Source of the DNA: Plasmodiophora brassicae
Lineage: Eukaryota
Length of the DNA: 64,000 nt
Assembly: GCA_036867785.1 (NCBI GenBank)
Contig: CP145416.1
Location: 1-64,000 of the forward strand
Direction of reading: 5' to 3'
A program made the translations under genes and the position numbers. Position 1 is the first letter of the stretch. Every line of letters starts with the position of its first letter. Below the pieces are notes generated by a model. The model saw only the letters and a program-made list of their open reading frames with translations, had not been told where the DNA came from and searched no databases. Below, piece by piece: positions 1 to 35,333 of the stretch.

Positions 1-386
1 AAAACCCTAAAACCCTAAAACCCTAAAACCCTAAAACCCTAAAACCCTAAGCCCTAAAACCCTAAAACCCTAAAACCCTAAAACCCTAAAACCCTAAAAC
101 CCTAAAACCCTAAAACCCTAAAACCCTAAAACCCTAAAACCCTAAAACCCTAAAACCCTAAAACCCTAAAACCCTAAAACCCTAAAACCCTAAAACCCTA
201 AAACCCTAAAACCCTAAAACCCTAAAACCCTAAAACCCTAAAACCCTAAAACCCTAAAACCCTAAAACCCTAAAACCCTAAAAAACCCTAAAAACCCTAA
301 AAACCCTAAAACCCTAAAAAACCCTAAAACCCTAAAAACCCCTAAAAACCCTAAACCCTAAAAAACCCTAAGCCCTAAAAAAACCC
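1..386. repeat. Telomeric repeat array (CCCTAAAA)n = (TTTTAGGG)n; left chromosome end
   Basis: Near-perfect AAAACCCT octamers from base 1, with the C-rich strand on +. Variant units (A-run lengths 3-7, CCCC, AAGCCCT) cluster proximally at ~280-386. Confidence 0.98.
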
Positions 387-1340
387 AGGCAACCGGCACA
401 CGTACTGAAAGGGCGTTGGAAATGCTGTCCGATGCACCTGGTTTCAGAGCAATATGGAATTTCCCGAAGGCGAACAGCACGCAGATGCACAGCAGTTCTC
501 AGTGGACGCCGTCACCGCCGCCGACCAACTGTCAACAGCCGCGTCTCGAATCGACAGGCAACCGGCACACGTACTGAAAGGGCGTTGGAAATGCTGTCCG
601 ATGCACCTGGTTTCAGAGCAATATGGAATTTCCCGAAGGCGAACAGCACGCAGATGCACAGCAGTTCTCAGCGGACGCCGTCACCGCCGCCGACCAACTG
701 TCAACAGCCGCGTCTCGAATCGACAGGCAACCGGCACACGTACTGAAAGGGCGTTGGAAATGCTGTCCGATGCACCTGGTTTCAGAGCAATATGGAATTT
801 CCCGAAGGCGAACAGCACGCAGATGCACAGCAGTTCTCAGTGGACGCCGTCACCGCCGCCGACCAACTGTCAACAGCCGCGTCTCGAATCGACAGGCAAC
901 CGGCACACGTACTGAAAGGGCGTTGGAAATGCTGTCCGATGCACCTGGTTTCAGAGCAATATGGAATTTCCCGAAGGCGAACAGCACGCAGATGCACAGC
1001 AGTTCTCAGCGGACGCCGTCACCGCCGCCGACCAACTGTCAACAGCCGCGTCTCGAATCGACAGGCAACCGGCACACGTACTGAAAGGGCGTTGGAAATG
1101 CTGTCCGATGCACCTGGTTTCAGAGCAATATGGAATTTCCCGAAGGCGAACAGCACGCAGATGCACAGCAGTTCTCAGCGGACGCCGTCACCGCCGCCGA
1201 CCAACTGGTCAACAGACGCGTCTCGATTCGACAGGCAACCGGCGGACGTACTGAAAGGGCAGGCGAAATGCAATCAGATGCATCTAGTGCAACGGCAACA
1301 GAGAAATCACAGGGTGAACAGCAGGCATGCCCGGACAAGT
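386..1340. repeat. 169-bp subtelomeric tandem satellite: ~5 near-identical copies plus one diverged proximal copy
   Basis: CAGGCAACCGGCACACGTACTGAAAGGGCG recurs at 386, 555, 724, 893 and 1062, and in diverged form at ~1232. The ORF track repeats with a 169-nt offset (454, 623, 792, 961, 1130). Confidence 0.95.
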
Positions 1341-1503
1341 TAAATCAGCGTCGCCTGGATAATAGTGTATGGCATTCCGCACGGTGGCCGATCGGGTGGG
1401 TGCGGTTGCGCAGCTTCAGGGCCTCGTGCATCAACAGCAGCGCAGGCTGGGCACGGATGACACCTGGACACCGAATGCCGAGCGGTTACATCAGGACAGT
1501 GTC

Positions 1504-2492
1504 GTAAACCGACGGATTTCATAACGACGCCGGCACGCACGCCAGATGTGGAGGTAGTACAAACGGAAACGCGGGACACCTGTCAGGGTCGACCTTCGCC
1601 ATGTGAGTCACGCCGGCTAAACGAAGTACTGAAGGCGCCGACGCATCGTGCCCAGACCATGACTGGAAATGCGGCAGGGCTGCAGCGTGCGGTCTAGCCA
1701 TGGTTGATCATCAGGGCGCAGGTTTGCTGGAGAACGAGACGCCAGGCGATGCCATCCATGATTCGCAAGTGCCAAAACAGTCCACACTCGGCATTTTGCG
1801 CACTCCCACGGAGTTCAGTTCTGACTTAGTGAAATCAGGAAATCTGCCCAGTCGCGCTACATTCTTGGCGATACGAGAGGAACGGTGGCACATATGCCAA
1901 CGGAAACATCCCAGCTGCCTCTGATTTTCCCTGCTCTTCCCAACGATAGCGTCATGTTCAACTGACGGTGGCCCAAACTCGCAAACAACCCCTTGTAAAC
2001 CGACGGATTTCATGACGACGCCGGCACGCACGCCAGACGTGGAGGTAGTACAAACGGACACGCGCGACACCTGTCAGGGTCGACCTTCGCCATGTGAGTC
2101 ACGCCGGCTAAACGAAGTACTGAAGGCGCCGACGCATCGTGCCCAGACCCTGACTGGAAAGGCGGCAGGGCTGCAGCGTGCGCTCTAGCCATGGTTGATC
2201 ATCAGGGCCCAGGTTTGCTGGAGAACGAGATGCCAGGCGATGCCATACATGATTCGCTGGCAGTGCGAAAACAGTCCACACTCGGCATTTTGCGCACTCC
2301 CACGGAGTTCAGTTCTGACTTAGTGAAATCAGGAAATCTGCCCAGTCGCGCTACATTCTTGGCGATACGAGAGGAACGGTGGCACATATGCCAACGGAAA
2401 CATCCCAGCTGCCTCTGATTTTCCCTGCTCTTTCCAACGATAGCGTCATGTTCAACTGACGGTGGCCCAAACCCGCAAACAACCCCTTGTAA
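1504..2492 (+). repeat. Two tandem ~491/494-bp monomers immediately upstream of LINE ORF1 (probable 5' UTR/promoter monomers)
   Basis: GTAAACCGACGGATTTCAT occurs at 1504 and 1995. Both units end ...CAAACAACCCCTT followed by GTAAA, and the last GTAAA (2489) runs into the ORF1 ATG at 2493. Confidence 0.9.
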
Positions 2493-3770
2493 ATGCAACA
2501 GACAGGCTGCATGGACCCCCAATTCAGCAAGATCGGGGAACTGACGCGGACCCGTGCCGCAAGGCCCAGTCCGGCCACGTACGCTGAAGCCGCCACCAGC
2601 AGCGCGCCTGGACCTGTTGCGGGCAGCACGACGCAAGTCATGCAGTGGCGACCGCTCTACCCCATCGATGACACCCGCGCCGTCGGCGCCCCGCCTCGGT
2701 CGACAACGATGCTCAGCTGGAAGCTACGCCCGGTGTACGTTCGCGGTTTTCGACGCCAGCCGCTCAGTGCAATCCGTCGAATCCTGAAAACGAAGGGCTT
2801 CGACATTCGCAAGATTGTCGAAATCGGGTTCCTGCATGGGACGTCGATGCTCGAGGTGTGGGCCTACGAGCACGAGACCAACGACATCGTCAACCGGCTC
2901 ATTCACCACGACTACCGGACGTACTTCGACCGGCGCCCGACAGAACCGTTCCTGTTCGATTCGGCGGCGTTCCGCAAGCTGGCCAAGCCAGAGCAAGAGC
3001 AGTTCGCGAACGAGAACTTCATCTATCGGCTGGAGCGAATCACGAGCCGCGTTGACAGCTGTCTGCGACGATCCGCGAAGCGGCAGTTCGAGGCAATGCT
3101 TGACTGGGAGCGGTCAAGGGCGGCACCGGCCCCTGATCATCACCACGTGCCCATGGCACCGGCTGGGGAGCAGCCACGCCCGCCGATGAGCTCGGGGCCT
3201 ATGAGGCCCACTGACGCGCCGCCTGCTGTTGTTCCTGTGCAGGCTGCCCCAAGTACTGACGAGAGCGTGGCGCCCGCCGAAAGCCCCACTGATGACGTTC
3301 CTGTCACGCCCGAGGACGACCGCCCAAGCATTGACATCTGCGACGACGACGCCCACACCAATGCCGATTCATGCAGCTCATGTGCGATGGAGGCGCTGTA
3401 CCCTCCAGTCGCCTCAATCATCAACGAGCTCGCGCCACCATCTTCCGACCTGGTGGAAATGCCGGCGGACGACGTCCGAGACGACAACGCGTTCCAGCTC
3501 GACAGCCAGAAGTCGTACAGCATGCGGCGTAGGCCGATCGCCAAACGCCAAGCTGTATCGCTGACGCTGGAGGAGGAGGAGGAGGATGAACCATCTGGCG
3601 CGGCGGACGAACGAGCTGGCGGCGGCCCAGCCGCCTCCGCTGACAACGATGCTGCAGCACGCAGCGCATCCCAGACCGACGAACAGGGCACCATGCGCCC
3701 TGTCCTGCCGGCGCCGGCCTCGGCCGGTCTGGCAGGGACGACTGAGACGAACCCCACGCAGCGATGCTGA
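2493..3770 (+). CDS. LINE ORF1 (putative nucleic-acid-binding protein), 425 aa
   Basis: Lies directly 5' of the RT ORF. Has a TYAEAA motif, a basic alpha/beta region (VYVRGFRRQPLSAIRRILKTKGFDIRKIVEIGF) and a long Pro/acidic low-complexity C-terminus. No CCHC knuckle. Confidence 0.8.
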   Translation: MQQTGCMDPQFSKIGELTRTRAARPSPATYAEAATSSAPGPVAGSTTQVMQWRPLYPIDDTRAVGAPPRSTTMLSWKLRPVYVRGFRRQPLSAIRRILKTKGFDIRKIVEIGFLHGTSMLEVWAYEHETNDIVNRLIHHDYRTYFDRRPTEPFLFDSAAFRKLAKPEQEQFANENFIYRLERITSRVDSCLRRSAKRQFEAMLDWERSRAAPAPDHHHVPMAPAGEQPRPPMSSGPMRPTDAPPAVVPVQAAPSTDESVAPAESPTDDVPVTPEDDRPSIDICDDDAHTNADSCSSCAMEALYPPVASIINELAPPSSDLVEMPADDVRDDNAFQLDSQKSYSMRRRPIAKRQAVSLTLEEEEEDEPSGAADERAGGGPAASADNDAAARSASQTDEQGTMRPVLPAPASAGLAGTTETNPTQRC

Positions 3771-6700
3771 TCGCTGCGTGGAATTCCGATGGCCTGGACG
3801 CTGCCAAGCTCCAGGCCACGGCCGCCTTCTTCAGAGATCGTCGCCTCACGGCGGCGGTCTTTGTGGAAACCTATGTACGTTCTGAATCGCTACTAACCAA
3901 TGTTCTCACAGATTACCAAATTCGACATGTCGCTGGCGGGCGATCCGCCAACGAACTTAGGGGCCATGGTGGCATCAGCATCATGGTCCCGGCCGCTGTG
4001 GCGCTGCGGGAGGTCGCCCGCGAGCGCAAGTGCATCACTCCAAGGTGGGCGGTTTGGCGCGTTGGCGAGGACCTTGTCGTCGCCGGCGTGTACATCCGCC
4101 CGGCCAGGTCACTGCCTGTCGACACGTACCAGATGACGCTGTTCGGCCTCGCCAACGCCATTGCGACGCACTGCTCGGACGGGGACCGTCTCGCCATTGT
4201 CGGCGACTTTAACGCTCGCCTCGGCGACGTCTCCGGCGACAGCACGTCCTGCCCGCGGAAGCCTCACGTCATGGAGCTGGTCGGCCGGTGCTCACTGTCA
4301 CTCTTGAACTATGCACTCCGCGGCGATCCCAGTCGCTGGACATTCGTGGTGCCCAACGGCAACGGACGCTCCGTCGTCGATCTCGCCTTGACCCGCGGTC
4401 TCGACTCTGCGCGCCTCAGCGTGGTCGACGCACCGATCAGCACGGCGCATCGCATGCTGGTTGTCGCGAGCGATCACGTCGTGCCGGAACGCGTTGACCC
4501 GAAGCGCTACTCCTGGGCGCGCAGGATGTTCGCTGACCCGGACGATCGCCCAGCCCTGTCGGTCCTGCTGGCCCCGGCCTACAACTATCTACGTGCCCTG
4601 TGGCTGGATGCCACCCGTGATTTCGACGAGATCGCTGACCACCCTACCGCAGCCCTGCAGGACGCCGTCGACAGCCTGTACCGCCACACCACTGACGTCC
4701 TTCGCGCCGTTCTCGAGGACATCGCCTGCTGGCCCAGCTCCCGGTCCAAGCGAGGTCGCACGGCAACGATGCGTCCCGACTGGCAGGCGCTGCAGCGCTG
4801 CGACCTGCGCTTCTACCTCAGCTCGATGCGACGCGTCTTTGCGGCCACGTCGCAGCTGCAGCCCAGCCAGCGCCCGTCCATCGAGGAATTCGCCGACCAT
4901 TGGAAAGCGGTCTTCGAGAAGCCGGGCGTGGACGACGGCCCGCGCCTGCGTTCCCCGCGCCTCTCCACCGACCTGGACGACGAGGAGTGCCATGCGTTCG
5001 GCCCCGCTGTCGTCACCGCCATCATCAAACGGCATGAGTGGATGAAGGGGGTCGGCCCGGACAACATACCGATGGACCTCCTGAAGTGTGACCCGGATGC
5101 CGCCGGCCCCTGGATATCCTGCATGTTCACCTGCTTGTACACTGTGCAGCTCGTGCCGTCTGACTGGCGGTCGGCGCTCGTTGTGCCCGTGCACAAACGG
5201 AACACCGAACCCGCCGACCCGTCGAACTGGCGAGGCATTGCGCTGCAGTCCCACCTCCGGAAGGCATATGAGACGTGTCTGATCACGTACATGCACCTGA
5301 AGGGGTGGCTGCAGATGCACTTCCTCCAGTTTGGATTTCGGCGAGGCATCGGTGTCCCCGAAGCCGTGTGGGTGGCCGACGAGCTGACCACCCACTGGGC
5401 GGCACGACGCAAGCCGCTGATCGAGGTCCTCCTCGACATGAGGAAGGCGTATGATAGCGCCCGCCGCATTCATGTCTACTCGAAGCTACGCAGACGAGGC
5501 GTACCTGCACATATCATCGCCGTTCTGCAGGCCTTGTTTGACGGCTGCCATTTCATCATTGCTCTGGACGGGCAGCTGTCCGAGCGGATCGCCGCGCTCG
5601 TCGGCCTATTCCAGGGCGCGATTGGCTCCCCTGACTTATTCAACGTCCTGATCGACGACCTGCCGTACCTGATCGTGTCGCGGTTCGGCGACGAGGCCCC
5701 GATGTTCGACCACATGCCGGTGCCCTGCCAGTTCTACGCCGACGACACCCTGCTGCACGCCTTCACCGACCAGATGGCCCAGGCTATGATGGACCTCTGT
5801 CAGGAGTACGCGCAGCGGCACGAACTCGAGTGGAACGCGACGAAATCGATCGTCTCCAGGCCGAGGACGTCGACCGCCGCGCAGCCGGCAGCCCTGACCA
5901 TCGGCGGCAACCGCGTCGTCGAGGAGCACGAGCTCGACAAGCCGGTGTGCTTCCTGGGCGTCGTCATGAAGGATGGTCGCCTCGATCATCGAGCCCAGCT
6001 CGCCTCGCGGACAGCCAAAGCCGAGAAGGCCATGATCGGGATCATGCACTCGGGCGTGTTCAGCACGAAGCACCTGTCGATCGTCCGGAAGACGCGCGTC
6101 GTCGGCGCCTGGATCCGTTCGCGCGCCGAGTACGGACTCGCCATCAGCAACAGCCACGTCGGCCTACTGAAGAAGCTCGACCAGCTGCAGAAGTCGGCCG
6201 CCGCCCTGTTCTTCGGTGGATACCGCCGCCGCATCGGCTCGTCCCTGATGCTCCGGTACGCGGGACTCGTGCCCGCCGCTGCCCGCCAGGCCAAGCTGCG
6301 CGCCCGGTTCGCGTTCAAGCAGATCACGTGGTCGGAGCAGATCAAGGATGGCGATCGCGTCCCGTTCCTGGTCCGCGTCACGCGCTGGGCGCTCAGCAAC
6401 CCGCGCAGCCGATTCAACATGATGCTGAAGGGCTGCAAGGTCTACGCGGACGCAACCGCCATCTACAGGAACGGCCGTGACGCCCGCGAGCAACGCGCCC
6501 GTGAAGAACTCGCCGACGCCGAAGCCGGCCGCCCGACGCGGAAGCGCCCACGCCTGCCCGATCGGCAAGACGCCCTGCTGCAAGCGCTCGAGCTCCACAC
6601 GTGGGCTGCCGCTGATGCGTCCTGCAAGCTGATGCGCCTGCAGCTACAGCCGTATAACCTCCCGTTTCCGGCGGCGTACCACTCGGGCGACGACGCATAT

Positions 6701-7528
6701 GCGGTGGCTTCATGGGTCACGAACCGCATACCGGGCTCGAACGCCCAGTGCCGGGCGTGCAACGACAAGAACCTCTCGAGGTATCACATTGCTGCCCGTT
6801 GCACTGAATCGTCGCGCCTGCTCAGGCCAATCATCGACTGGCGCATCCGTGCCTTGCACTTCAACAGGGCGGACACGGGCGTCGCCATCGACTACGTCGC
6901 CATCCAGCTCAACGATTACGCACGCCTGACGGCGCCGCCCGCCAGAGAAGACGACCGTCTACGACCGCGCCGCATGCCGGATAAGCGCCACCCGACGTTT
7001 CGGCTGAGCGATCGCCAGCGACGCTGGCTGGCCGTCCTGGGCACGTTCATCCGCGCCGTTGCCGCCCGCTGCATCCGCGGCGAGTCGCTCGCCATCTCCG
7101 CTCAGGGCGTCGCTGCGCTTGCTGGCCTGGACGCGACGCTATGGAACGAGATCAGCGACGATGAGGACAACGAGAACGCGCGAGTCGCCGTTGAAGTTGC
7201 CGAACACGTCCTCGACGACCCTGCACTGGTCGGGTTCCTGGGCGGTGCGGACATAGCCGGCCCAGAGATCGATGCCGATGCCCGAGTTCGTCGACGCGCC
7301 CACCATCTCTCGCCGACGGCGATAATGACGGCCATCGTGATGAGATGTATTGCCAACGCGACCGGGCGACCGGCGGAAGCCGACGCTGGACCCCAGCATG
7401 AAGCTCGTGTGCCGCTGCGCCCCGACGCGCCGTCGCCTGCATCGTCGCCCGGCCGTGTCCAGTCGCCATTAGACGGGCACAGTGCGGCCGACATAGAGCG
7501 CCGCGCGCGTTCATGGCGCCCGCCGTGA
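3764..7528 (+). CDS. LINE ORF2: apurinic-like endonuclease + reverse transcriptase + C-terminal CCHC-type motif, 1254 aa
   Basis: APE motifs AWNSDGL, VETY, GVYI, GDFNARLG, VVDLAL and STAH. RT motifs GPDNIP, VVPVHK, NWRGIAL, QFGFRRG, LDMRKAYDS, GLFQGAIGSPDLFN and FYADD. C-terminal CRACNDKNLSRYHIAARC. Confidence 0.97.
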   Translation: MLIAAWNSDGLDAAKLQATAAFFRDRRLTAAVFVETYVRSESLLTNVLTDYQIRHVAGGRSANELRGHGGISIMVPAAVALREVARERKCITPRWAVWRVGEDLVVAGVYIRPARSLPVDTYQMTLFGLANAIATHCSDGDRLAIVGDFNARLGDVSGDSTSCPRKPHVMELVGRCSLSLLNYALRGDPSRWTFVVPNGNGRSVVDLALTRGLDSARLSVVDAPISTAHRMLVVASDHVVPERVDPKRYSWARRMFADPDDRPALSVLLAPAYNYLRALWLDATRDFDEIADHPTAALQDAVDSLYRHTTDVLRAVLEDIACWPSSRSKRGRTATMRPDWQALQRCDLRFYLSSMRRVFAATSQLQPSQRPSIEEFADHWKAVFEKPGVDDGPRLRSPRLSTDLDDEECHAFGPAVVTAIIKRHEWMKGVGPDNIPMDLLKCDPDAAGPWISCMFTCLYTVQLVPSDWRSALVVPVHKRNTEPADPSNWRGIALQSHLRKAYETCLITYMHLKGWLQMHFLQFGFRRGIGVPEAVWVADELTTHWAARRKPLIEVLLDMRKAYDSARRIHVYSKLRRRGVPAHIIAVLQALFDGCHFIIALDGQLSERIAALVGLFQGAIGSPDLFNVLIDDLPYLIVSRFGDEAPMFDHMPVPCQFYADDTLLHAFTDQMAQAMMDLCQEYAQRHELEWNATKSIVSRPRTSTAAQPAALTIGGNRVVEEHELDKPVCFLGVVMKDGRLDHRAQLASRTAKAEKAMIGIMHSGVFSTKHLSIVRKTRVVGAWIRSRAEYGLAISNSHVGLLKKLDQLQKSAAALFFGGYRRRIGSSLMLRYAGLVPAAARQAKLRARFAFKQITWSEQIKDGDRVPFLVRVTRWALSNPRSRFNMMLKGCKVYADATAIYRNGRDAREQRAREELADAEAGRPTRKRPRLPDRQDALLQALELHTWAAADASCKLMRLQLQPYNLPFPAAYHSGDDAYAVASWVTNRIPGSNAQCRACNDKNLSRYHIAARCTESSRLLRPIIDWRIRALHFNRADTGVAIDYVAIQLNDYARLTAPPAREDDRLRPRRMPDKRHPTFRLSDRQRRWLAVLGTFIRAVAARCIRGESLAISAQGVAALAGLDATLWNEISDDEDNENARVAVEVAEHVLDDPALVGFLGGADIAGPEIDADARVRRRAHHLSPTAIMTAIVMRCIANATGRPAEADAGPQHEARVPLRPDAPSPASSPGRVQSPLDGHSAADIERRARSWRPP

Positions 7529-7674
7529 ACGCTGCGCACTCCGCCGATCCTGTCACTCGAGTCAAGCCTGTCCTATTCACGTCCGTTCCCGCCGAGCTCA
7601 CGACGCTTTAGCTGTATCTGACAAATACAAATAGAAGTTCCTTTGCCCTACGGATTTGGTTCCTGCTTGTTTTA

Positions 7675-7804
7675 ATCGGGGTTGGCGTCGCGGACGTCTT
7701 TGAGAGGCTTGTTCGCCGCCGCGTTCGCCGTGTTCAAGCAGCGCGACGCCGACGCCGCGGCGGCGAACAAGGCTCTCAAAGACGTCCGCGACGCCAACCC
7801 CGAT
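7675..7804. repeat. Inverted repeat/hairpin with 49-bp arms (one mismatch) and a 32-nt loop
   Basis: 7675-7723 (ATCGGGGTTGGCGTCGCGGACGTCTTTGAGAGGCTTGTTCGCCGCCGCG) is the reverse complement of 7756-7804 at 48 of 49 positions. Confidence 0.95.
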
Positions 7805-8030
7805 GACCCGCGCCTGCCCGACATGGAGCGCGACGCCGCCGCCGCCGAGCGTGCCCGCGACGCTGCCGTGGCCGTCTATGTCGCGTCACGTACCGCCGCC
7901 CCGCCCGCCGGTACTTCTTGCCTCGATTTACGCGTGGCTATATTTTGATAACGCTGGTTGGACTTCTAGAGGACACGACGACCCTCGTAGGCGATTGGTT
8001 TCTCGTCGCTGCAAGAAAGACGGTTGCTCA
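7724..8030 (+). pseudogene. 5'-truncated gene fragment (Ala-rich helical exon plus probable intron 7911-7969); no ATG
   Basis: GC-rich coding-like frame AVFKQRDADAAAANKALKDVRDANPDDPRLPDMERDAAAAERARDAA followed by a GT...AG intron. The upstream part is replaced by an inverted copy of itself. Confidence 0.45.
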
Positions 8031-8329
8031 TGTATATGCTTTATTTCGGCGTCCATGGCCGGATTGGCAACAATTGGGGTCCACTGCTGATAGTTCTCAA
8101 CGGCGTTATCGCCAACATGCACCCGCCCTCAGCCGTAGATTTTCGCTGATAAATGTTCGCGAACAGTTTTTTGATATTATAGCGCGCAGCCATACCTGTC
8201 GGGGACGGGTGGGATCGCGGCGCTGTTCCTGTTCCTGTTTCGAGTCTGCAACCGCCGTCGTTAAGGGCTGGTGCACTTCGACGACGAGCGAAACACAATT
8301 AAATCTATCGTGTTGTCCCGCGTCTGCAG

Positions 8330-9356
8330 ACCCTTGACGGTACCCAATGTCACACTATTAGGGTGTTGAACGCGTTTGAGCCAATTGCACCGGTCCATAT
8401 CCTTCGCTGTTTGCCTGGATGGAACCGCGTATCGGGCACGGCGCCCTGGGTGGACCTGTACAACCAGGTGATGAACCCAGCCCTGGATGCGAACGTGGCG
8501 TCGTACGTGCTCGTCGAGCTCATCAGCCGCCTGGGCGACGCCGACCAGGCGACACGGTCGTTTCCTGCCGGGTATCAGCACGACGCCGACGATTTCGTCC
8601 TGGAACTGCTATCGCAGATGGAGGCATACCGTATGGTCGGGCATACCGTATGGTCGGTTCTGATGGACACGCTATTGTTCGCAGTCTCGTCGAAGACGTA
8701 ATTGACACATGTGCGACCTGCGGCCATGCCTCGTCGCGCCCGCCTTGTCAGCAGCCCGTCGTGATGCTGCAGGGTTGCCACCAGCGAGTCAAACTGTCAG
8801 CGGTTCTAGTCGGGGAGCAGTCAACAACGATAACCAGGAGGTGCACCTCCAAGAGGCCTTGCAAACCTGGTCACGATGTCGAGCATCGGTCAACGAACTT
8901 CCGCCACATGGCCAGCATGCCCAGGCCCGGATCACTGTTGATTGTTCGACAGGATCCAATGGAGATCGTCCAGGAATCCGGCCCTGATGGAGCGCAGATC
9001 AGCATGGCGCGTCGTAGGACCACTGTGGTAGGTGCAGGACATCAAGCGATGATGATGGGTGGATCTCTTGGATATCTGATATCTCCTCTGTGCAGGACGT
9101 GGTGCCAGAATTGGCATTCCAGGTCGGCAGTGCTTTCTTCGACCTCGTTGGCCTGGTCGATTATCAGGGTGGTGACACCCAGTTGGCTGGGAACGATGAA
9201 GGGCATTACATATCGTGGGTTAAGCAACCCGGCGGTTCCTGGGCCTTCTGCGACACCAGTCGCCTAGTGCGGTATGGAGAGTCCCAAGTGGCTCGCCTGC
9301 TCGACAAGCGCGTCTACAGGCTGCTCTTCTACCGATGCATTGGTATCCGTTTATAA
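8330..9356 (+). CDS. Divergent ubiquitin-specific protease (USP/peptidase C19)-like gene, spliced; start not identified, possibly a pseudogene
   Basis: Cys-box-like LDGTQCHTIRVLNAF; QHDADDFVLELL (QQDA.EF box); finger CATC; His-box DLVGLVDYQGG...GHYISWVK...WAFCD; terminal YRLLFYR. Introns at ~8631-8684 and ~9028-9096 join the three frames. Confidence 0.72.
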
Positions 9357-9599
9357 ATTCGCCTTTTTAACTTTACGCACGGGACGGGTCTGTTTGACAT
9401 GCAGCATCGCGAGCGTCGATGCTCGAGTGCCAATGTCTAAGGGTTGGCATTGCCTGGCGAAACCAGGCATGGCAACGTCGTGGAAGGATCTGCCATGGTC
9501 GACACGCAGGGACGGGCGTAACGTCGACGTACTCGCCGGGGACGGACGGCGTCCCGCCGTGCACCGATTGCACGGAACGCTGCCGGTCGGCACCAGCTG

Positions 9600-12500
9600 A
9601 CGCCAGGAAGCCATGCATGGCCGGTGTACACGCGTGACAACTGGTTTTGCTTGTATTGAACGGTCCTGGTTGCCGCGATACGCCGGCCGGGATGGTGACG
9701 ATCGTCATCAGAAAGCAGGCGTTCGCGTGGCGGCCTGTAGAAATGGACGCTGGGCACCGCTGAACTGCTGGGCAACCAGCAGCGTAGGCAGGCGCAGTCG
9801 GGCTTGCAGACGTTGGCGCTGGCGGCGCCCTTGCTCGCTGTGCCCGACATCGAATGATGGGTCTATGACAGGGACGCAAACGACCAACCGCAGCGATCGA
9901 CAGGGGGTAGGCGTCGCCTCAGGCGTGGGGCCAGGTGGCCGCAACCCTGACGATGCGCTACAGCTACGGTTGCCGTCTTCTGTCCATCACATGTCAGAGG
10001 CCATGGTCGCTTGTCAGACGCGAAACGACCGACCTGTTCTGGATATAATTCATCCAGGGATACTGAGCGCGTGGACACACCAGCAGCAGGTTGCATTGCC
10101 TTCCCCGGGGATGCGCTTTACACGTGCCAATATAGTCGGCGGCGACGTCGGCGTGGACCTGTCGTCGGGGATACGCGACATGCGATAGCCCCAGGTGCGG
10201 AGCAGGTGGTCGGACCGCCTGGCACCGCCCGGCATCGACGGCTGCCGTCTCCTGTCCAGCACATGTCTCAGCCCATGGTTGCTTGTCATACGCGATACTA
10301 CTTACCTGTTCTGAATACAATTCATCATCCAGTGGTACTGAGCCGCAGCAGGTTGCGTTGCCTTCGTTGGGGACGCCTTGGCCCGTGACGATATGGTCGG
10401 CGGAGACGGCGGCGGGGACGCAAGCAGGTCAGGCAGGCACGACATGTCGTCGGCGACCCGCGATGTGCGACGGCGAAGAACACCCGTTGAACCGTGTATG
10501 GCGATGTAGTGGACGACGTTGACGACAGGCAGCGTAGCCGGGTCGTCGGCGACGACGACGACGCAATTACGGAGTGGGTGCGCCCTGCTTGACTTTCGCC
10601 GAGGCCAGCCTTCATTGGAAATTCATATACCGACATGGACTAGATCAGTAGGTACGAACTCGACCAGGACCATGCCCTCGTTTAATGTCGAGTACCTACC
10701 CTCCGAAGAACGGCGAAGAGAAATTCGGCACTCTCCACCCTTTGCGGACAGCGGGTCCCACACATCCGACTGTATTGTTCCTCGGTTACGTTCCCTTTAC
10801 GTTTGTCGGGAACTCGTAAACGTTTGGCCCCTGCATCTTGCTGAAATTGTTAAAATGTGTTAACGCTCCCGGTTACGACGAGGAGCAATTCGGCACTCTC
10901 TCCTCGTTGCGGACAGCGGGCCAAACACCTCCGAGTGTATTGTTCCTCGGTTACCTTCCCTTTAGGTTTGTCTTATTGTCGTAAACTTGTAAAGGGATGG
11001 CCTCTGCACCGTATTGAAATTCGTAAAATGTGTTAACGCTCCCGGTTACGACGAAGGGCAATTAGGCACTCTCTCCCCGTTGCGGATAGCGGGTCTGAGA
11101 CATCCGATCGAGAGTATTGTTCCTGGGCTACCTTCTCCTTCGGTTGGTCTTATTGTCATCAACTCGTAAATGTATGGCACCTGCACCTTACTGAAATTCT
11201 GAAAATGTATTAACGCCCGCTTACGACGAGGAGCAACACGGCACCCTCCGCCCGTTGCGGGCAGCGGGTCTCACACATGCGAATGTACTGTTCCTTGGTT
11301 ACGCTCTTCACGTGTGGGTGTACGGCTGTACGCGCATGTCAACATGTTCAGCGTGTATTGAACGGCCCCGGTTATCGGGATATAGCGTCAAGGATGCTGC
11401 ACGATCGTTGTCGAAAGTCAGGTGTCCGCGAGGCTTCCGGCAGCAACGGGCGCTGGGCACCGCTACCCTGCTGGGCAACCAGCAGAGTTGGCAGAGGCAG
11501 CCGACCAGGCAGATGGGGGGCCGGCGACGCATTTGCACCAGTGCCCGTCATCGCAGGATGGTTCAGGGTAGACGACGATTTGCAGCCAGCGACTATGGAG
11601 GGGCAGTCGACCGCCTCAGGTGTGGACCAGAATGACGATTTGGCAGAACCACGCCTGCTTGAAGGCTCACATGATGGACAAGCGACGTCCCGCGACAGCT
11701 GGCGTGTCCTGTCCATCACATGTCAGAGGCCAAGGTCGCATCGCATCAGCCGACAAACCATACCTGTACTGGAGCCGCTCCCAGAGATACTGGGCGCGCT
11801 GACGGAAGATCACCACGTTCCGCTGTTCTTGTAGAGGATGCGTTGGCCCGATCGCGGCGACGTCGGCGCGGACGCAAGCACGGCAGGGAGCCGTATCAGG
11901 GCGTCGGCAACATGGGACATCTTGGCAACGACACGCCCCTGGCCAGGAGATGCACAGGAGCCCGGCAGGCCCCCTTATGGTCGCGTCGCAGGTGATCCCG
12001 TTGGCCCGTGTCGGTGCTCGGCGGCGACTTCGACGCGGACGTAAGCACGGCAGGCAGGCACGTCTGGGACCCGCAGCCTGCTGAGGCGAGCGTAGACGCA
12101 TATCGCAATGTAGTGGGCGGCATTGACGACCGGCAGTGTCGTACTGGCGACGGCAGGTATGTCCTGTGCAGAACGTGTGAGGCCGTTATCCTTTGCATTA
12201 GACAACGGTCCGTACCGGAGCATGGCGTCGCCCAGACGTGTTGGGCGCGTTGGCATACGTCCAGTGGTGTGCATCGTTGACGTCGCAGTCGATCGCAGGT
12301 ACAGCGAGCAGGCGCCTCGGGACATCGAAGACTCGAGATACGCGAAGACGAACACAACGCAGGCAGGCAGGCACCAGGTCGTCGGCGACACGCGAGGTGC
12401 GAGTCCTGTGCAGAACGTGTGAGGACCTGGTCCTTTGCATTAGGCGACAATCCGTACCAGTGCATGGCGTTCGCCCAGAAGTGTTCGGCGCGTCTGCAGA

Positions 12501-12640
12501 CATCCTGCAGGATGCAACGACGATGTCGCAACAGTCGCTGGTACGGCGATCACGCGCCTCGGGACGTCGAGGACTTGCGACATGCGATGCCGAACACAGC
12601 GCAGGCAGGCAGGCACCGCTCGACGCTTAGGAAAGCAGCC
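9600..12640 (+). repeat. Decayed complex repeat region (diverged duplication ~9620-10100 vs ~11320-11830; ~240-270-bp units at ~9980, 10254, 11710, 12160, 12403)
   Basis: Recurring diverged blocks: TGTATTGAACGG...GCTGGGCACCGCT...CTGCTGGGCAACCAGCAG twice; GTCCA(T/G)CACATGTC three times; GTCCTGTGCAGAACGTGTGAGG twice, 242 bp apart. Confidence 0.75.
10700..11310. repeat. Diverged AT-richer tandem repeat, ~165-177-bp unit, ~3.5 copies
   Basis: AAAATGTGTTAACGCTCCCGGTTACGACGA-like blocks at ~10852, 11025 and 11202; GGCACTCTC-like blocks at ~10726, 10892, 11065 and 11240. No ORFs. Confidence 0.85.
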
Positions 12641-24516: not shown

Positions 24517-24765
24517 TGAGTCAGGTGATGCGCGCGCACACGGTGACTCATGTGGGCGCTAGCGCTCGCGCTCTCTGTGGGCCTCCAGATGCGCACACCC
24601 GCACCTGGTGAGTCACGATCAGCGCAGCTTACTGTTCACCTCATGCCGCACCCAGTTCATTATACATTTCGTCGCGACAAGGTAACAGGTCGCTGATCCA
24701 AAGTCCTGGTCGATGTCTGACGGCGGCGCAGGTCCTAATTTAATTTAACTTCAGCTCTATATATT
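24517..24765 (+). promoter_or_regulatory. GH114 gene 1 upstream region with three TGA(C/G)TCA (AP-1/Gcn4-type) motifs and a TATA-like element
   Basis: TGAGTCA at 24517, TGACTCA at 24544, TGAGTCA at 24609; ATTATAC at ~24659. Conserved in the paralogous upstream region. Confidence 0.5.
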
Positions 24766-27404
24766 ATGGCCAACATTTCTATCATGAGCATTGCAAGAGC
24801 GCTGACGATTGCAGCAGCAGCCCTGTACGGGTTCGCCCACGTCGAAGCGGCCTGGACACGCCCGCAAGTCGGCATGGCATGGCAGGTATGTGATTGTCTT
24901 CTAGTACCGGATCGGCCGTACACGACTGACACTCGGATGGTCTGCTTATTTAGTGGGAGCTGACGTCCGAGGGAGTCCCCGATGTCACAACGCCAAATGT
25001 TCCTGTCTGGGACATTGACCCTGAAGCACTGGATGTGGGAGAGATCCCCACGCTGATGAACGCATTGCACGCCAACGACAGATACATCATCTGCTACGTG
25101 AACGGTACTTATCTGCTATCACATTCAAGTGTGTACTCGCCTGACTCGAGGCATGCCCATGGCCAGTCGGATCCCTGGAACCGGATCGGATGGATGTGAA
25201 CGCGTTCAAATCCGTCAGCCCAACGATCATTGGCGACAAGTACCCGGGTTGGGATGAGCAGTTCCTCGACATTCGCAGAAGCGAGACGCGGTCGCTGATG
25301 AAGGCGCGGTTCCAGCGCATGGCGTCGTACGGGTGCCATGGTATCGAGCCCGACAACCTGGATACCTATTTGCAGATTACCGGATTCAGTCTGAGCCCTG
25401 CGGACGCTCTGGACTACATGAACTGGATCGCGAGCACCGTGCACGGCCTGGGCATGGCTGTGGGCCTGAAGAACTGCGGCGACCTGATCGCAAAGAACAA
25501 TCTGGCTGACGTGTTCGACTACGCCATTGTCGAGAACTGTGCCGCCAAGGGCAACTGCCCGGATTTCGCTCCGTTCATTCAGGCGGGCAAGCCGGTGTTC
25601 GCCGCCGAGTACACGGACGCTGGTGCGGGAGGGTGCAACCCGACAATCTCGTCAGTGCCGGCTGCGTGTGCTGTCACGAACGCGCAGAACCTGGAGGCCA
25701 TCATTAAGTCCTGCAACCTGGGCCCGGAATGGCAAGCCTGCCAGACGTACAGCAATACCGGGTACCGATCCGTTGCGACGACGACACCATACGCAACACC
25801 AACGCCGTCCCCCACACCCCTGCCAACACCAGCTGCACCGTCGCCAACTCCTGCAGCGACTCAGGCACCGACTCCGGCACCGACCCCCAAACCGACGGCG
25901 GCACCAACTCCGGTACCAACATCGGCACCGACTCCCAAACCGACTGCGACTCCGACTCCCAAACCGACACCAGCACCAACTCCCAAACCAACGCCGGCAC
26001 CGACTCCCAAACCGACCCCGGCACCCACTCCGGCACCGACGTCGGCACCGACTCCCAAACCGACACAGGTACCGACTCCGGCACCGACGTCGACACCAAC
26101 ACCCAAACCAACCCCGGCGCCGACTCCCAAGCCACCAACCCCGGCACCGACTCCAGCACCGACACCTGTGCCAGCGTCAGCGTCATGGACACGACCACAG
26201 GTCGGCGCGGGTTGGCAGGTATGTACAGGGCATTTCGCGAACTTTGACGGCACATAACTGACCATGCGCTGACGTCTGCTTAGTTGGAGCTGTCCTTCAG
26301 CGACATCCCAGACGTGACGACCCCGGACGTTCCCGTCTGGGACATCGACCCGGAGCAACTGGACCAGGACCAGATCCCGGCGCTGATGGACGCATTGCGC
26401 TCCAGCAACCGGTACATCATCTGCTACGTCAACGGTACGTCTCTCCTGTTTAACTTCCGATGCGGGCACCCTAACACGACCCATGGTGATCATCGACAGT
26501 CGGCTCCCTGGATGCGTCAGCTGTCGATGCAGGTGCGTTCCAGGACATCGAGCCCTCGATCGTCGGGAACCCGTATCCGAATTGGCCAGCGGAATCGTTC
26601 TTGGACATTCGCAGGGAGGAGACGCGATCGCTGATGAAGGCGCGGTTCCAGCGCATGGCGTCGTACGGGTGCCAGGGCATTGACGCCGACAACGTGGACA
26701 GCTACTCGTACAAGACTGGATTGGGCCTGGACGTTTCCGACGCTCTGGACTACATGAACTGGATCGTCGACACGGTGCACGGCCTGGGCATGTCTATCGG
26801 CCTGAAGAACAGCGCCGACCTGGTCGCGCCGAACCACCTGGCTGCCTCGTTCGACTTCGCCGTCGTTGAGGCGTGCGCGGAAACGGGCGACTGCCCGAAG
26901 TTCGATCCGTTCATCCAGGCCGGCAAGCCCGTCTTCGCCGTCGAGTACACGAACAGCGGCCGGTCGGGTGGGTGCGACCCAAAGGTCTCGTCGGTGGCAC
27001 ACGCGTGCGCTGTGACGAACGCGCACGATTTCGAAGGCATCATCAAGTCGTGTGATCTGCGCGCTGAATGGACGTCCTGCCAATCGTACGACGGATCCGG
27101 GTACCGATCCGTCTCGACGCCGGTAACTTTCCCGACGGACGTTCCTGCGACGGCAACGCCGCCTCCGACACCCGTGCCAACAACAGCGACACAGTCGCCA
27201 ACCCGCACGGCCACTCCGGCACCGACTCCCAAACCGACGTCGGCATCGACTCCTGTGCCCACCTCGGCACCGACTCCCAAACCTACCCCTTACCCAACGC
27301 CGGCACCGACACCTGTTCCGACACAGGCAACACCGACGCCTACTCCCGCACCTTACGGTGGCGGCGGGGGTTGGCGCTCCTGGAATCGACGCGGCCAATA
27401 CTGA
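24766..27404 (+). CDS. Secreted glycoside hydrolase family 114 (endo-alpha-1,4-galactosaminidase-like), two catalytic domains with Pro/Thr-rich linkers
   Basis: Signal peptide. Each domain shows WQ|WEL, WDID, IICYVN|VGS, FLDIR, G(C)xGIxxDNxD, GLKN, FDxAxVE.C and GKPVFAxEY, with two introns per domain at the same positions. Confidence 0.9.
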
Positions 27405-28084
27405 GCATCATCTGCGAAGAGCCCCCGATGGGTTGGCCGGGCCAACGTTCAGGGTAGCTGCGTTAACGCTCTAACGTTATAAAACGAGACAAAGAATTCC
27501 GTGACGAGATGCTTCCTGTTCCTCGGTCGCCATCAGTAACGGTAGAAGCCACTACCATCTCAACTGAATCTACAAGTGACGTATACGGCGCCCGCCACTA
27601 AACCACACTGCATGCTCGTACCCTCTTCGTCCAGCAAATGCCTGAGCTGCTGGGCAACGACGCGACCGTCCTATAAATCCTCTTGCAGACGTACATGCTG
27701 TAACGCGCGGGACAGTAGTACTGCCGGTTGTCGCCGGTGGCAAAATGCCTGCTCATCGCAGCGTCGGCGACGCCGACCCGACGTGCATGACGTATAGATC
27801 TTCTCCTGTCGTCAGTGTACCCTCGTGACAAACACAACGAAGGCCGACGGTACCTGGCGAGTTTTGTGCGGATCGATCAATGGACAACCGTCGCGATCAC
27901 GCTCGCCATTGCGGTCAATCGTGCATGATGTCAAGTGCGAACTGGTAAACCATTTGAGTAGACCTGTGCCGGAACGTCTGTAGTATTGGAATCGTACACC
28001 ACGTACCAGCCATTCTCATCGTGGTATCGGTAGACGGAATGGATGCCTTCTCGTCTTAACTTTCTAAACGATGGTCGTTGGACG

Positions 28085-28760
28085 TCATGGCTCCAACGAG
28101 ATCTCCTCTATGCGTCCACTCTGGTCCAAATTATAACGTATGTGCAGCCAAAAGTAAGGCCTTGTAGAAGGCGCCGTCGTAGAGTTCTCGAGTCGCTGGA
28201 GAACGACCTGGTTCACCAGCGAGATCATCGTCTGCGCCAGATCATGGGGATCGGAACATGCGCCTGCAGTAGTTGTTCCAGTTGCTGGAACGCCGGCGTT
28301 ACTGGCATATCGCGCTCTGCCAGCGAAACGAACTGCATCAGGGACACGGACGCCGGATCGACCCGGAGCTGTCGCGACGTACATCGATGCCAACCCGGGT
28401 ATCGAGCTCGACTGCGGCGGGCACCTGTTATCGAGAGCGATCCGCCGATCGTTGCGCAGGTTCTCCAGGAAGATCGGCTCCCACTTGGGCGTCAACGCCA
28501 ACACGTGGCTGTTCGTCCTGCGCGCCCGGGCCAGCAGAGCTTTCGAATCGCGGTAATACAATTCCGCGTTCTTCAGCGTCTTGTGGCGCGCCGCTTGCCT
28601 GATGTGATCGAGGTCGCCACCACCCCAGATGGCGAACAGGTACGCCGTCTTGCGCATCGAGTGCGGGCCGTACCGGTGCATCGTGTCGTCGCCGACGACA
28701 GGCCTGCAAACACGAACGAACTCGGCGTTATTGTAGTCGCGTATCGGCGGTCAAGTGCAT
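28085..28760 (-). mobile_element. Tyrosine-recombinase C-terminal fragment (Crypton-like DNA transposon relic)
   Basis: GPHSMRKTAYLFAIWGGGDLDHIRQAARHKTLKNAELY shows HxxR...H...Y catalytic spacing. The N-terminal catalytic Arg region was not found. Confidence 0.72.
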
Positions 28761-29116
28761 TGCTGGTCAACTTATATTAAAGACGCTTCCGTAGCAAAGA
28801 CATCCCGGCATCTTCCCATATGTCACGGAATGGCCATCGCATTGTGCTGCGACATGAGCACCCTTGTGGTCGGCAAGGCGCGGTACTGGTCCGCAGTACG
28901 TAATCGGCCTCAATGACACGCTCGGCAAGCAGCGCGCTCTGACGCTGGATCTTGATAGTTCCAGCGCCTGCAGCGACCGACACACCTGGTCCCGCATCGT
29001 CCTCTTCATCGCCGCCGACCGGTCTGCGGTCGCCATCGGACCCGACTGTGCTAAAATAGTGGCGATCGAGAACCCCGCGCACGCGACGGGATTCCTCTGT
29101 TGACGCTTCACGGGCT

Positions 29117-30182
29117 ATGGGACGCCCGTCGTGGATGATCATTGCTCTGCCGATCGTGATCGAGTTCATGTGGGGTGCAGCGTCATTGAAGGGGACCCGC
29201 CCTTACCGTTTCGACAGCGCAGCGCCGGCCTCATGGTCGTGTGTGCTGGAGGATTGGCTGTACCTAGGCGATGGGCGCTCGTCGCGCAACTTCGACGAGC
29301 TGCGGATGCGGCGCGTCACGCACGTCGTGAACGCCGCTGCCGTGGAGATGCGGCCGCTGTTCGAGGATAAGGGCATCGCGTATCTGAATCTGCGGATAGT
29401 CGACAAACCGTCACACCGGATCTCGCAGCACTTTGACGAGGCTATCGCCTTCATGGAGCACGCCAGATCCGTCAATGGCACCGTGTTGGTCCACTGCGCG
29501 GCAGGTCGTCAGTATCGTTTCGCTATGTGCACTGTCCTTGTTGCTAATCGAGATGCATTCAGGAGTTAGCCGGTCGGCGACCATCGTGCTTGCGTATCTT
29601 GTGTCCCATGGCTGGTCGTTAGCATCGGCAATCGTGCATTTACGTCTTATCCGGCCTCAAGTCTGGCCCAATCGTGGGTTCCAGGAACAACTGATCGACT
29701 TCGCACAACAATACCGCAATGCTACGTTGCAAGCGGGCTTCGTGCCTGTCCGATTCAACTCTCTGTTCCATTTCATGACTTTCGTAACCGATCCGTTCTG
29801 GGCGATGCCTGCGCCGTTCGTCCACCTGATCCCCGCAATGTTCGCCTCCGTGCCGCTGCCTCAGCAGGATTTACCTGAACTGGCCGACGCTCTTCTCGCA
29901 TGGACCGTCAACCCTGGCAAAGCCTGCTTCTACGCCGGTCGCGTGTTTCGGGCGCTTCTACTTAATGATGCCATAACGTACAGCGACTTGACCTTGTTCT
30001 TCTCTGGGGTATCGTCTGATATCCAGTACGACGTCCCACGGTTCCGCGAACATCTTGACTTGTTTGTCAAGGCACTCGCCAGTGACGAGTTCGACTCGGT
30101 CTTCGGTGGGTCTTGCCCGGACAAGATCGCAGGTATTGATACGTATTTATCAACTACTTGCAACTGGACGCATCGTACATAA
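29117..30182 (+). CDS. Dual-specificity protein phosphatase with hydrophobic N-terminus
   Basis: LYLGD, VTHVVNAA and VLVHCAAG|VSRSATIVLAYL (HCx5R), followed by RPQVWPNRGFQEQL. Intron 29505-29562. Confidence 0.93.
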
Positions 30183-30357
30183 CGCAAGACGCTGTTTTGT
30201 CGGAAGTGCCCCGAATGGTTTGATTGTCCAGTCGATGTCAGCTTGCATTGACAGGTGACAACGCTTGTACCCCTTCGTTTCAGAAAAGGAATAATGTGTG
30301 AAACATCGAAAGATTAAGTTCATTTTTAGAGACGTATGGTATTGAAACATAGGTTCT

Positions 30358-30616
30358 ATTCGTGCCCGGGATGCGGTTCGTCATCCAGGACGCCACAGCG
30401 TTCGCGTCGGCTCCCGCGTAGGACGCGGGTGGGAACGGGAGGTTATATGGCTGGACCTGAAGGCGCATGAGCTTGCAGGGCGCGTCGTCGGCGTTCCAAG
30501 TATGCAGCTCGAGCGCTTGCAGCAGGGCATCTTGCCGATCGGGCAGGCGTGGGCGCTTCGGGGGCGGCCGGATTCGACGTCGGCGAGTTCATCTCGGCTA
30601 CGTTGCGCGCGCGTCT
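30358..30616 (-). pseudogene. Frameshifted relic of the same LINE family (ORF2 post-RT region)
   Basis: Encodes ELADVESGRP / KRPRLPDRQDALLQALELHTW...MRLQVQPYNLPFP...VASWMTNRIPG, matching ORF2 at ~6478-6740. Confidence 0.92.
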
Positions 30617-30639
30617 GTTCCAAAACTTGAGGCGAAATT

Positions 30640-30880
30640 CCAGGTCTGGGTGATATTTCCCAGATTCTGGGTGTTGTCTTCCAAACTCTAGGTGCTATGT
30701 CCCAAGGTCTGGGTGATATTCCCGAGAAACCAAACCCACCCTAGGTGCTGTGTCCCAAACCCTAGGTGCTCATGAGTTCCAATGAGGGTGAGACTTACCA
30801 TATTCTAGGTGCTGGGTCCAAAGTCTGGGTGTCGGTCCAAAGTCTGGGTGACAATGTCCAATTTTGAAGGTGCTCGGACC
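30640..30880. repeat. Degenerate ~20-21-bp minisatellite (core TCTGGGTG/CTAGGTG...TCC)
   Basis: TCTGGGTG at ~30646, 30666, 30708, 30823 and 30843; CTAGGTGCT at ~30688, 30741, 30762 and 30805. Confidence 0.75.
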
Positions 30881-30904
30881 CTTCCCTCTCGCAACGCACG
30901 ATAG

Positions 30905-31183
30905 TGAGTCAGGTGATTCGCGCACACAGGTGACTCATGTGGAGGGCGCGCAAATGGTGAGTCACTCTATGCGCTCGCGCTCTAGGTGGGCCTCGTGATG
31001 CGCACACGCGCACCTGGTGAGTCACGCATCAGCGCCTGCGCTTCTTGTTCACCTCATGCCGCATCCAATTCATTATATATTGTCGCAACAAGGTAAAAGG
31101 TCGCTCATCCGCACCCCTCGTCGATGTCTGACTGCAGCGCAGGTCCTCATTAATTTAACTTAAGCTTTCTATATATTATTATT
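30905..31183 (+). promoter_or_regulatory. GH114 gene 2 upstream region with four TGA(C/G)TCA motifs and a TATA-like element
   Basis: TGAGTCA at 30905, TGACTCA at 30931, TGAGTCA at 30958 and 31018; TTATATA at ~31073. Paralogous to 24517-24765. Confidence 0.5.
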
Positions 31184-34927: not shown

Positions 34928-35333
34928 TCACCATCTGCGAGTCGGCTGGCGTGTTGGCAGGGCCAACGTTCTACCCAGGTAGCTGCGTCTGCGCTCTTAC
35001 GTGCGCTCTTACGTTATAAAACAACGAGATGAATAATTCCATGACGAGATGCCTCCCGTTCTTCGGTTCGTCATCAGTAGTGGGGTCGTTATGATGGACG
35101 GTTCGAAAGCGGACGCATGGTAATGCTGACATAATTGGCGTACTATCTCGGATGGCGCCGAGCACCCTCGCCGCAACTCAGAGCACGATGCCTCCACGTA
35201 GACGAGTCCGCGTTTCTGCCGACGTCGTTGGCGGGATCTATGCTTCGAAGCTATTGGGCGTCCGTATCGCTATGCGTTAGACAGTTGTTCATATCGATGT
35301 GGGGCGTTCATGATGAACGGACGGGCATCCACG

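Follow-up and report, generated by a model that had tools for sequence, protein, structure and literature searches.

The first 64,000 nucleotides of contig CP145416.1 of Plasmodiophora brassicae (assembly GCA_036867785.1), here called the window, carry close to their telomere a full-length long interspersed nuclear element (LINE) that is predicted to encode an APE endonuclease and a reverse transcriptase (RT). We lean, with moderate confidence, towards the reading that this LINE belongs to a clade of APE-type LINEs that are primed on telomere repeats and behave like the TRAS and SART elements. The family probably homes to telomere DNA, and on balance we take the window LINE to be a telomeric-repeat-specific LINE, the first seen in Rhizaria. 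LINEs specific for telomeres have been described in insects, in a lizard, in Giardia, in Chlorella and in one fungus. In those parts of the P. brassicae and Rhizaria literature that were accessible, no telomere-linked LINE was found; the genome papers give LINEs as a repeat class only and subtelomeric repeats as divergent, and their supplementary repeat tables may list it. If the reading is true, a clade whose terminal units follow the length of the telomere repeat would offer a natural experiment on how the endonuclease of a LINE, or the end of its RNA, follows its target. The subtelomeres of P. brassicae rank among the regions that differ most from isolate to isolate, and an active LINE that homes to them would be a plausible driver of this divergence.

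The evidence that carries this reading comes from the 3′ ends of relatives. A profile of open reading frame 2 (ORF2) and its nearest relatives was compared with metagenome contigs, where 478 stretches matched, 160 were confirmed and the best 80 were kept. Among these best 80 of the 160 confirmed loci, the close relatives were L001 to L006 only, with 31–35% identity over ORF2. Four families are represented (L001; L002; L003 and L005; L004 and L006), with 35–46% likeness between families and 99.6% between L004 and L006. L005 stops within ORF2 and is therefore outside the count of 3′ ends. All five relatives that retain the 3′ end carry telomere-type units of the C-rich strand on their sense strand, 120–170 nt after the ORF2 stop. 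The terminal units are CCTAAAAACCCTAAAAACCCT in L001, CCTAAAACCCTA in L002, CCTAACCCTAAC in L003, CCTAAA(CCCTAAA)4CCC in L004 and CCTAAA(CCCTAAA)3CCC in L006, with unit lengths of 6, 7, 8 and 9 nt and 1.5–5 units per locus. The register was the same throughout, and in 5/5 loci the units opened with CCTAA straight after a conserved 3′ untranslated region (UTR) end, which reads AAG or CAG followed by two of C, T or A. In L004 the units continued directly into a further copy, with its 24-nt 5′ UTR, its ORF1 and its ORF2, and a self-overlap of ~99 nt in this contig indicated a head-to-tail pair. In L006 the units were followed by unique DNA. A looser unit pattern matched nine of the 74 other loci; taken against the RT match, six of these matches are on the minus and three on the plus strand. 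Three of the nine were checked against the RT match and none had the pattern at the 3′ end. The last 25 nt of the window LINE gave 0 matches in metagenome contigs.

In the unique DNA behind the telomere-type tail of L006 (positions 2680–3200 of that locus), a cysteine-rich sequence that looks coding is reached after at most a few hundred bases, and the element therefore lies near an ordinary gene in its host.

The 3′ junctions of the P. brassicae copies were examined in public sequencing runs. Of the 24 runs listed, 20, which come from 9 studies and are all stored as contigs, contained a fraction of 0.61 or more of the words sampled from 381–10000. Four runs (X1, X7, X9 and X14) were compared with 1262–10500, and the junctions given here are those among the matches listed. 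X1, X7 and X9 are DNA runs, and X14 was only guessed to be RNA, though GT..AG splices were present in it; none of the runs listed as containing the stretch was given as RNA. On the 3′ side of the LINE, an X9 contig departed from the window after 7642, one X14 contig ended at 7642 plus 5 letters, and a second X14 contig matched the window from 7640 only. By this comparison, and by that with the relatives, the LINE is best ended at 7639. The junction that results, ...ATAGAAGTT followed by CCTTTGCCCTA, is in the same register as in the relatives, and the UTR end ...ATAGAAGTT is closest to the UTR end of L002, ...TTATAAGTT. The loose motif CCT.{3,4}CCCTA had one match in 127,200 positions outside the telomere, and this was at 7640. 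A second P. brassicae copy, seen in X9, continued with CCT and AAAGCCC, that is CCTAAAGCCC, and then with unrelated sequence; the variant unit AAGCCCT is present twice in the window telomere. Both visible P. brassicae 3′ junctions were thus telomere-like. As far as the sequences go, the 3′ end lies against telomeric repeats, with a register and an orientation that do not vary, as in a TRAS/SART-like LINE. As to repeats on both sides of a copy, units precede a 5′ end in L004, the 5′ flanks of the window copy and of the second P. brassicae copy are non-telomeric, and no long array was seen.

The window copy had neither the usual LINE tail, poly(A) or a simple repeat, nor a target-site duplication of 7 nt or more. 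The sequence-only reading of the window had placed an A-rich 3′ end at 7636; the end has moved to 7639 and is just loosely A-rich, and there is no A tail. Its statement that no target-site duplication is visible agreed with our search, in which no duplication of at least 7 nt was found at any candidate 5′ border of the LINE. The sole shared 8-mer, ACGGATTT, was at chance level (~1.7 expected by arithmetic). It occurs at 7650–7657, just behind the telomere-like site, and at 1512–1519 and 2003–2010, where the two 491-bp repeats start, and each time CC and a variable base stand in front of it; such a count is expected by chance, yet its location at three borders is odd.

The borders and frames indicated a complete element. 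The matches of X9 and X14 contigs to the window began at 2525 and their sequence differed upstream, with ~1046 unrelated nt before 2525 in one 2379-nt X14 contig. Because the contigs of two other runs diverge before 2525, the 5′ end of the LINE was placed there, and because the element starts at 2525, the 491-bp repeats in front of it are neighbours and not its 5′ UTR. Neither the satellite nor these repeats, the 'monomers' of the sequence-only reading, belong to the element. The start of ORF1 was placed at 2709 on the basis of an alignment to the ORF1 of L004 (217 aa), whose residue 3 aligns with residue 91 of the window frame (weak, E 2e-5), and of the annotated P. brassicae model, which begins at M73. 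Residues 73–425 of the frame were identical to PBRA_009705 of P. brassicae at 351 of 353 positions. ORF1 had no Pfam match and Atlas scores below 0.9, its AlphaFold model had a predicted local distance difference test score (pLDDT) of 41, and a longer form was sought and none was found. ORF2 matched the Pfam families Exo_endo_phos at residues 5–238 (E 8e-6) and RVT_1 at 478–707 (E 1e-18), was collinear in alignment with seven full-length relatives, and gave R2 (6e-13) and L1 ORF2p (1e-9) as the best solved structures for its RT. The YADD box and other RT columns were invariant in nine aligned sequences, as were C996, C999, H1008 and C1013 of the CCHC motif. Twenty relatives bore names of hypothetical proteins only. 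With open frames, conserved catalytic boxes and a 5′ end at 2525 that is common to two copies, the element is complete, and the earlier finding of an intact APE and RT element near the telomere was borne out by the uninterrupted ORF1 and ORF2 and their Pfam matches. By its predicted composition, with APE and RT in one frame, an upstream ORF1 and a C-terminal CCHC, the LINE is an APE-type retrotransposon without long terminal repeats (non-LTR).

Four other descriptions of the element were dropped after the comparison with the metagenome relatives: the 491-bp repeats as a 5′ UTR like that of mouse L1, a window copy 5′-truncated inside ORF1, a 3′ end at 7642, and a window copy that is purely an endonuclease-independent repair insert. 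The stop of ORF1 and the start of ORF2 overlap as ATGcTGA in the window (3764–3770) and as ATGA in L004 (1801–1804) and L005 (1018–1021), which suggests that ORF2 may be translated by termination-reinitiation across the clade.

We infer that the G-rich strand of the telomere primes reverse transcription. The 3′ OH of a ...TTTAGG end would prime synthesis of the complementary DNA (cDNA) at the 3′ end of the element RNA, and this primer end would either be nicked in a fixed register by the element's own endonuclease or be free already. In each new copy the 3′ end would then lie beside C-strand telomere units and face the chromosome body, the 5′ end would point outward, and the 3′ flanks of other copies would be expected to be CCTAAAACCC-like and in a single register. 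The window copy, whose 5′ end points outward at 2.1 kb from the telomere and which has C-strand units behind its 3′ end, has the polarity expected if the G-rich strand primes. It may have used the near-cognate site CCTTTGCCCTA. The conserved APE domain would favour cutting of the target rather than waiting for a free end, and the short unit tracts followed by unique DNA, together with the break-like junction of the window copy, favour a natural or broken end as the primer. Break repair would have reshuffled the subtelomeric block around it, leaving a foreign piece of 40 nt and a fold-back of 49 nt derived from the neighbouring gene, and the tip itself is formed by further subtelomeric repeats together with a telomere of the ordinary telomerase type. 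The LINE would be a telomere-seeking parasite like TRAS and SART that may heal ends incidentally.

Several observations weigh against a telomere-primed LINE. The site behind the window copy is degenerate, with TTG in place of AAAA between CCT and CCCTA, and fails the stricter pattern that was applied to the loci. Two P. brassicae 3′ junctions only were visible among the matches listed, where no DNA contig bridged 7639/7640, and the 5′ flanks of both copies seen were non-telomeric. In every relative the 1.5–5 units give way to non-telomeric DNA and none was seen within a long telomere array, where an assembly bias is possible either way. The endonuclease is only presumed to be specific, and its APE domain alone had no match among solved structures. 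Finally, a reverse-oriented piece of a related LINE occurs 30 kb into the window, and RT proteins of the window family and of sister families are found on P. brassicae contigs of six different sizes, from 0.74 to 1.37 Mb.

The last two points also fit a different explanation, which we find doubtful, namely that this is an ordinary LINE whose simple-repeat tail is merely telomere-like, that its place near the end reflects the tolerance of subtelomeres for insertions, and that it spread among chromosome ends when subtelomeric blocks were duplicated. The contigs that bear RT proteins are 741,057, 923,546, 1,123,131, 1,127,679, 1,206,894 and 1,371,253 bp long. The LINE and its flank to 10.5 kb are multi-copy, a conclusion that was drawn for the block 1262–10500 because its contigs were short (250–900 nt) and contained variants inside single runs (e.g. 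at 5482 and 8265–8304). The 491-bp repeats were also multi-copy in other runs, with a variant that is ~99 nt shorter (joint 1757>1857; also 1757>2351), and were elsewhere joined to a non-LINE sequence like that at 9487/9651 (joints 1908/2402>9487 and 1998>9651, with a shorter side of 22–43 nt only). Both subtelomeres of one chromosome are described as highly divergent among isolates in the accessible part of a preprint (10.64898/2026.10.14.759018), and this too would be in line with block duplication. On the other side stand the terminal units of the relatives, which have four lengths, are all of telomere type and share one register, a coincidence that is hard to credit to chance, and the site motif, which is unique among the positions searched.

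Other traces of the family were seen in P. brassicae gene models. Residues 138–841 of PBRA_006577 were 85% identical to residues 551–1214 of ORF2, and its residues 888–1307 were 48% identical to residues 382–818, so that this model joins a 5′-truncated copy of the window LINE family and a second LINE family on one strand, head to tail. A newer annotation gives these parts as XXQ39268.1 and XXQ39269.1, with consecutive accessions on the same 741,057-bp contig, an arrangement that counts in favour of the telomere-primed reading. Placement of the XXQ-numbered genes along their chromosomes by accession and locus tag was dropped, as two plausible numberings led to opposite results. PBRA_008386 starts with 55–62 residues of a related ORF1. 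These fused or juxtaposed models are likely transposon-derived mis-annotations. Also in favour of the telomere-primed reading, summed contig depth, which is no measure of copy number, increased ~2-fold from 5′ to 3′ along the LINE in X1, X7 and X9, as with 5′-truncated copies, and did not rise in X14. The four 30-nt flanks of other copies were all absent from the window.

Beyond the telomere-like site the window copy is followed by a patchwork. The 40-nt piece overlaps the arm of the fold-back by 5 nt, ATCGG, and the 30-mers that flank it in X14 were both absent from the window. The fold-back is an inverted repeat of 49 nt with 98% complementarity and a 32-nt loop, and its DNA fold had -78.8 kcal/mol and z = -12.2. 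Its left arm, 7675–7723, is as expected if a minus-strand 3′ end at 7724 had folded back and copied 7756–7804. The junction suggests break repair in which the template was switched, or else a copy made from another subtelomere. The two X14 loose ends may belong to one contig or to two, and these events may have preceded or followed the arrival of the LINE.

Such a junction, with its fold-back, its foreign piece and ATCGG overlap and with neither a target-site duplication nor an A tail, would be expected if the element RNA annealed to eroded or broken ends without a cut, was reverse-transcribed there and was then capped by telomerase, so that the LINE served as a back-up for end healing beside telomerase. 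We regard this as unlikely. In its favour, the 1.5–5 units followed by unique DNA in the relatives are what would be expected from the joining of critically short telomeres, L004 consists of a copy, five units and a copy, XXQ39268.1 and XXQ39269.1 lie head to tail, and endonuclease-free priming at ends is documented for Drosophila elements and engineered L1 in the accessible text of PMC2881922. However, the APE domain was retained in 8/8 aligned full-length members, the telomere is not on the LINE but separated from it by 2.1 kb of other repeats, a site-specific nick would explain the constant CCTAA register equally well, and the fold-back may be unrelated to the arrival of the LINE, since the two X14 loose ends were not tied to one contig. 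A broader version, in which an old, protist-wide LINE clade tracks the telomere repeat of its host (units of 6, 7, 8 or 9 nt) and, in addition to cleaving telomeric DNA, joins critically short or broken ends by pairing of the RNA end with the G-rich overhang, would make it a retrotransposon back-up for end healing in telomerase-positive protists, the clubroot pathogen among them, that builds and reshuffles variable subtelomeres. This we hold to be improbable as well.

That the LINE acts as a cap is unproven: the tip is built of telomerase-type repeats, the endonuclease has been conserved, and beyond 7650 the junction is a patchwork left by repair. The window held no terminal array of the HeT-A/TART type: the 386-nt TTTTAGGG array is the tip, and the reverse fragment at 30.3 kb is interstitial. 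The sequence-only reading had proposed that the LINE family caps chromosome ends in a hybrid system of end maintenance. Its link to the telomere was strengthened by the terminal units of 5/5 relatives, by both telomere-like P. brassicae junctions and by a polarity that fits; the capping itself was not sustained, given a tip of telomerase-type repeats that sits on a satellite, the 2.1 kb of repeats in between, the conserved APE domain and the reverse fragment at 30 kb.

At 1–380/386 lie 46.5 units of AAAACCCT, of which 36 were perfect and 11 were variants concentrated at the inner edge, and the C-rich strand runs 5′ to 3′ inward, which is the orientation of a true left end. The telomere repeat of P. 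brassicae is of the TTTTAGGG type in the accessible text of PMC6823432, PMC11191646 and PMC13547706. The window start is a true chromosome end of P. brassicae. It could still be that the terminal 7.7 kb were misjoined to the chromosome across repeats, since the region is repetitive, no contig among the matches listed spans the stretch, and a fold-back and a foreign 40-mer lie at the junction. We consider such an artefact very improbable: the words of 381–10000 were found in the 20 runs described above, 30/30 depth bins of the compared block were covered in each of the four runs, and the telomere is correctly oriented with a graded inner edge. The order of telomere, satellite, monomers, LINE with its 5′ end distal and fold-back that had been described from the sequence was found complete at the window start. 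The coordinates of these features are collected in the table.

Table. Features at the chromosome end and the isolated LINE piece (window positions)
Feature	Position	Strand	Remarks
Telomere, n x AAAACCCT (TTTTAGGG on the opposite strand)	1–386		variant units concentrated at the inner edge
Subtelomeric satellite	386–1260		169 bp, 5.2 copies, 98% alike; extra degenerate unit to ~1361
Two tandem repeats	1504–2493		~491–494 bp, 96–99% alike; the earlier 'monomers'
Gap from last 491-bp repeat to LINE	2494–2524		31 nt; absent from other LINE copies (loose ends before 2525 in X9 and X14)
Full-length LINE	2525–7639	+	5115 nt; 5′ UTR 2525–2708, ORF1, ORF2, 3′ UTR 7529–7639
ORF1	2709–3770	+	no known domain; likely start M73 of a 425-aa frame opening at 2493
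ORF2	3764–7528	+	1254 aa, no stops; predicted APE endonuclease, reverse transcriptase (YADD), C-terminal CCHC
Telomere-like site	7640–7650	+	CCTTTGCCCTA; in clade register, presumed priming or target remnant
40-nt piece	7640–7679		other sequence on both sides in X14 contig(s) (loose ends 7640 before, 7679 behind)
Fold-back	7675–7804		arm 7675–7723 is an inverted copy of 7756–7804; loop 7724–7755
Start of spliced gene, family unassigned	7756–8400	+	introns 7910–7968 and 8135–8189
Isolated piece of related LINE	30298–30617	-	320 bp, ORF2 residues 906–1008, 81% nucleotide identity

The gene beyond the fold-back had been read as truncated, which could not be established. Its frame is open from ~7675 with a first ATG at 7822, X14 contigs showed the GT..AG splices 7909>7969 and 8134>8190, and neither this gene nor the other ORFs of the flank matched a Pfam family. 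In Rfam the fold-back region (7671–7808) matched MIR4374 on both strands with 72 and 69 bits against a threshold of 105, which is probably a generic hairpin match. The fold-back could be a source of small RNAs, and small RNAs have been reported in P. brassicae. Further inward, a perfect 17-nt tandem duplication (GGCATACCGTATGGTCG, 2.1 copies) lies at 8623–8657, inside the open frame 8419–9267.

A spacer separates the satellite from the 491-bp repeats. At 10710–11302 a unit of 173 bp is repeated in tandem, in 3.5 copies that are 78% alike, and dispersed repeats of 70–80% were found near 9625–12617, pairing 9625–9863 with 11327–11564, 9916–10158 with 10188–10419, and 12161–12375 with 12403–12617. 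The repeats up to 12.6 kb form a repeat-rich subtelomere before the first ordinary genes, which begin at ~13–15 kb and include TLDc, Reeler, a GH114 array, an ABC transporter and a CFAP65-like protein. The GH114 array at 24762–34940 consists of five tandem copies of a 1.23–1.34-kb unit that codes for GH114 glycoside-hydrolase domains (E 1.5e-43 for 25190–26257), each with a long run of 12-nt repeats, and is split by ~4 kb that contain the reverse LINE fragment.

Among known systems, TRAS1 and SART1 of Bombyx mori (R1 clade) are the closest in behaviour, as they too are LINEs with APE and RT that enter telomeric repeats in a fixed register and orientation. TRAS1 is described as inserting between T and A of (TTAGG)n, with cuts at T^A on the G strand and at C^T on the C strand (PMC2868851), and SART1 as requiring at least three repeats (PMC7265360), in the accessible parts of these papers. 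In contrast to both, the window LINE has no poly(A) tail, and its register, ...TTAGG^G, is not the T^A one. The clade moreover shows 1.5–5 units and then unique DNA, and occurs in protist hosts; the likeness is one of behaviour. With HeT-A, TART and TAHRE of Drosophila the window LINE shares a 3′ end that faces the chromosome body and a 5′ end that faces outward, and the family shares head-to-tail pairs. There the telomere consists of the elements, in an organism that lacks telomerase repeats, whereas here TTTTAGGG repeats form the tip.

Telomere-associated elements also include Zepp of Chlorella, GilM and GilT of Giardia, MoTeR of Pyricularia, Tx1-1_ACar of Anolis and Athena of rotifers, as listed in the accessible text of PMC10088271. 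Like the window LINE, these are retroelements in or beside the telomerase-made repeats of telomerase-bearing organisms. Copies of Zepp and GilM/GilT are capped directly, at a truncated 5′ end, by telomere repeats; the endonuclease of MoTeR is restriction-like, and Athena is not known to have one. The window LINE differs from Zepp, GilM/GilT, MoTeR and Athena in that its endonuclease is of the APE type and its copy is not directly capped. Endonuclease-independent insertion of L1 at breaks and dysfunctional telomeres was reportedly found by Morrish in 2002 and 2007. The window copy resembles such insertions in having no target-site duplication and no A tail, and in the foreign filler and short overlaps at its junction. 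Unlike those insertions, which involved endonuclease-mutant L1 in repair-deficient cells, the window LINE has an endonuclease that looks intact, and its telomere-like site suggests targeting.

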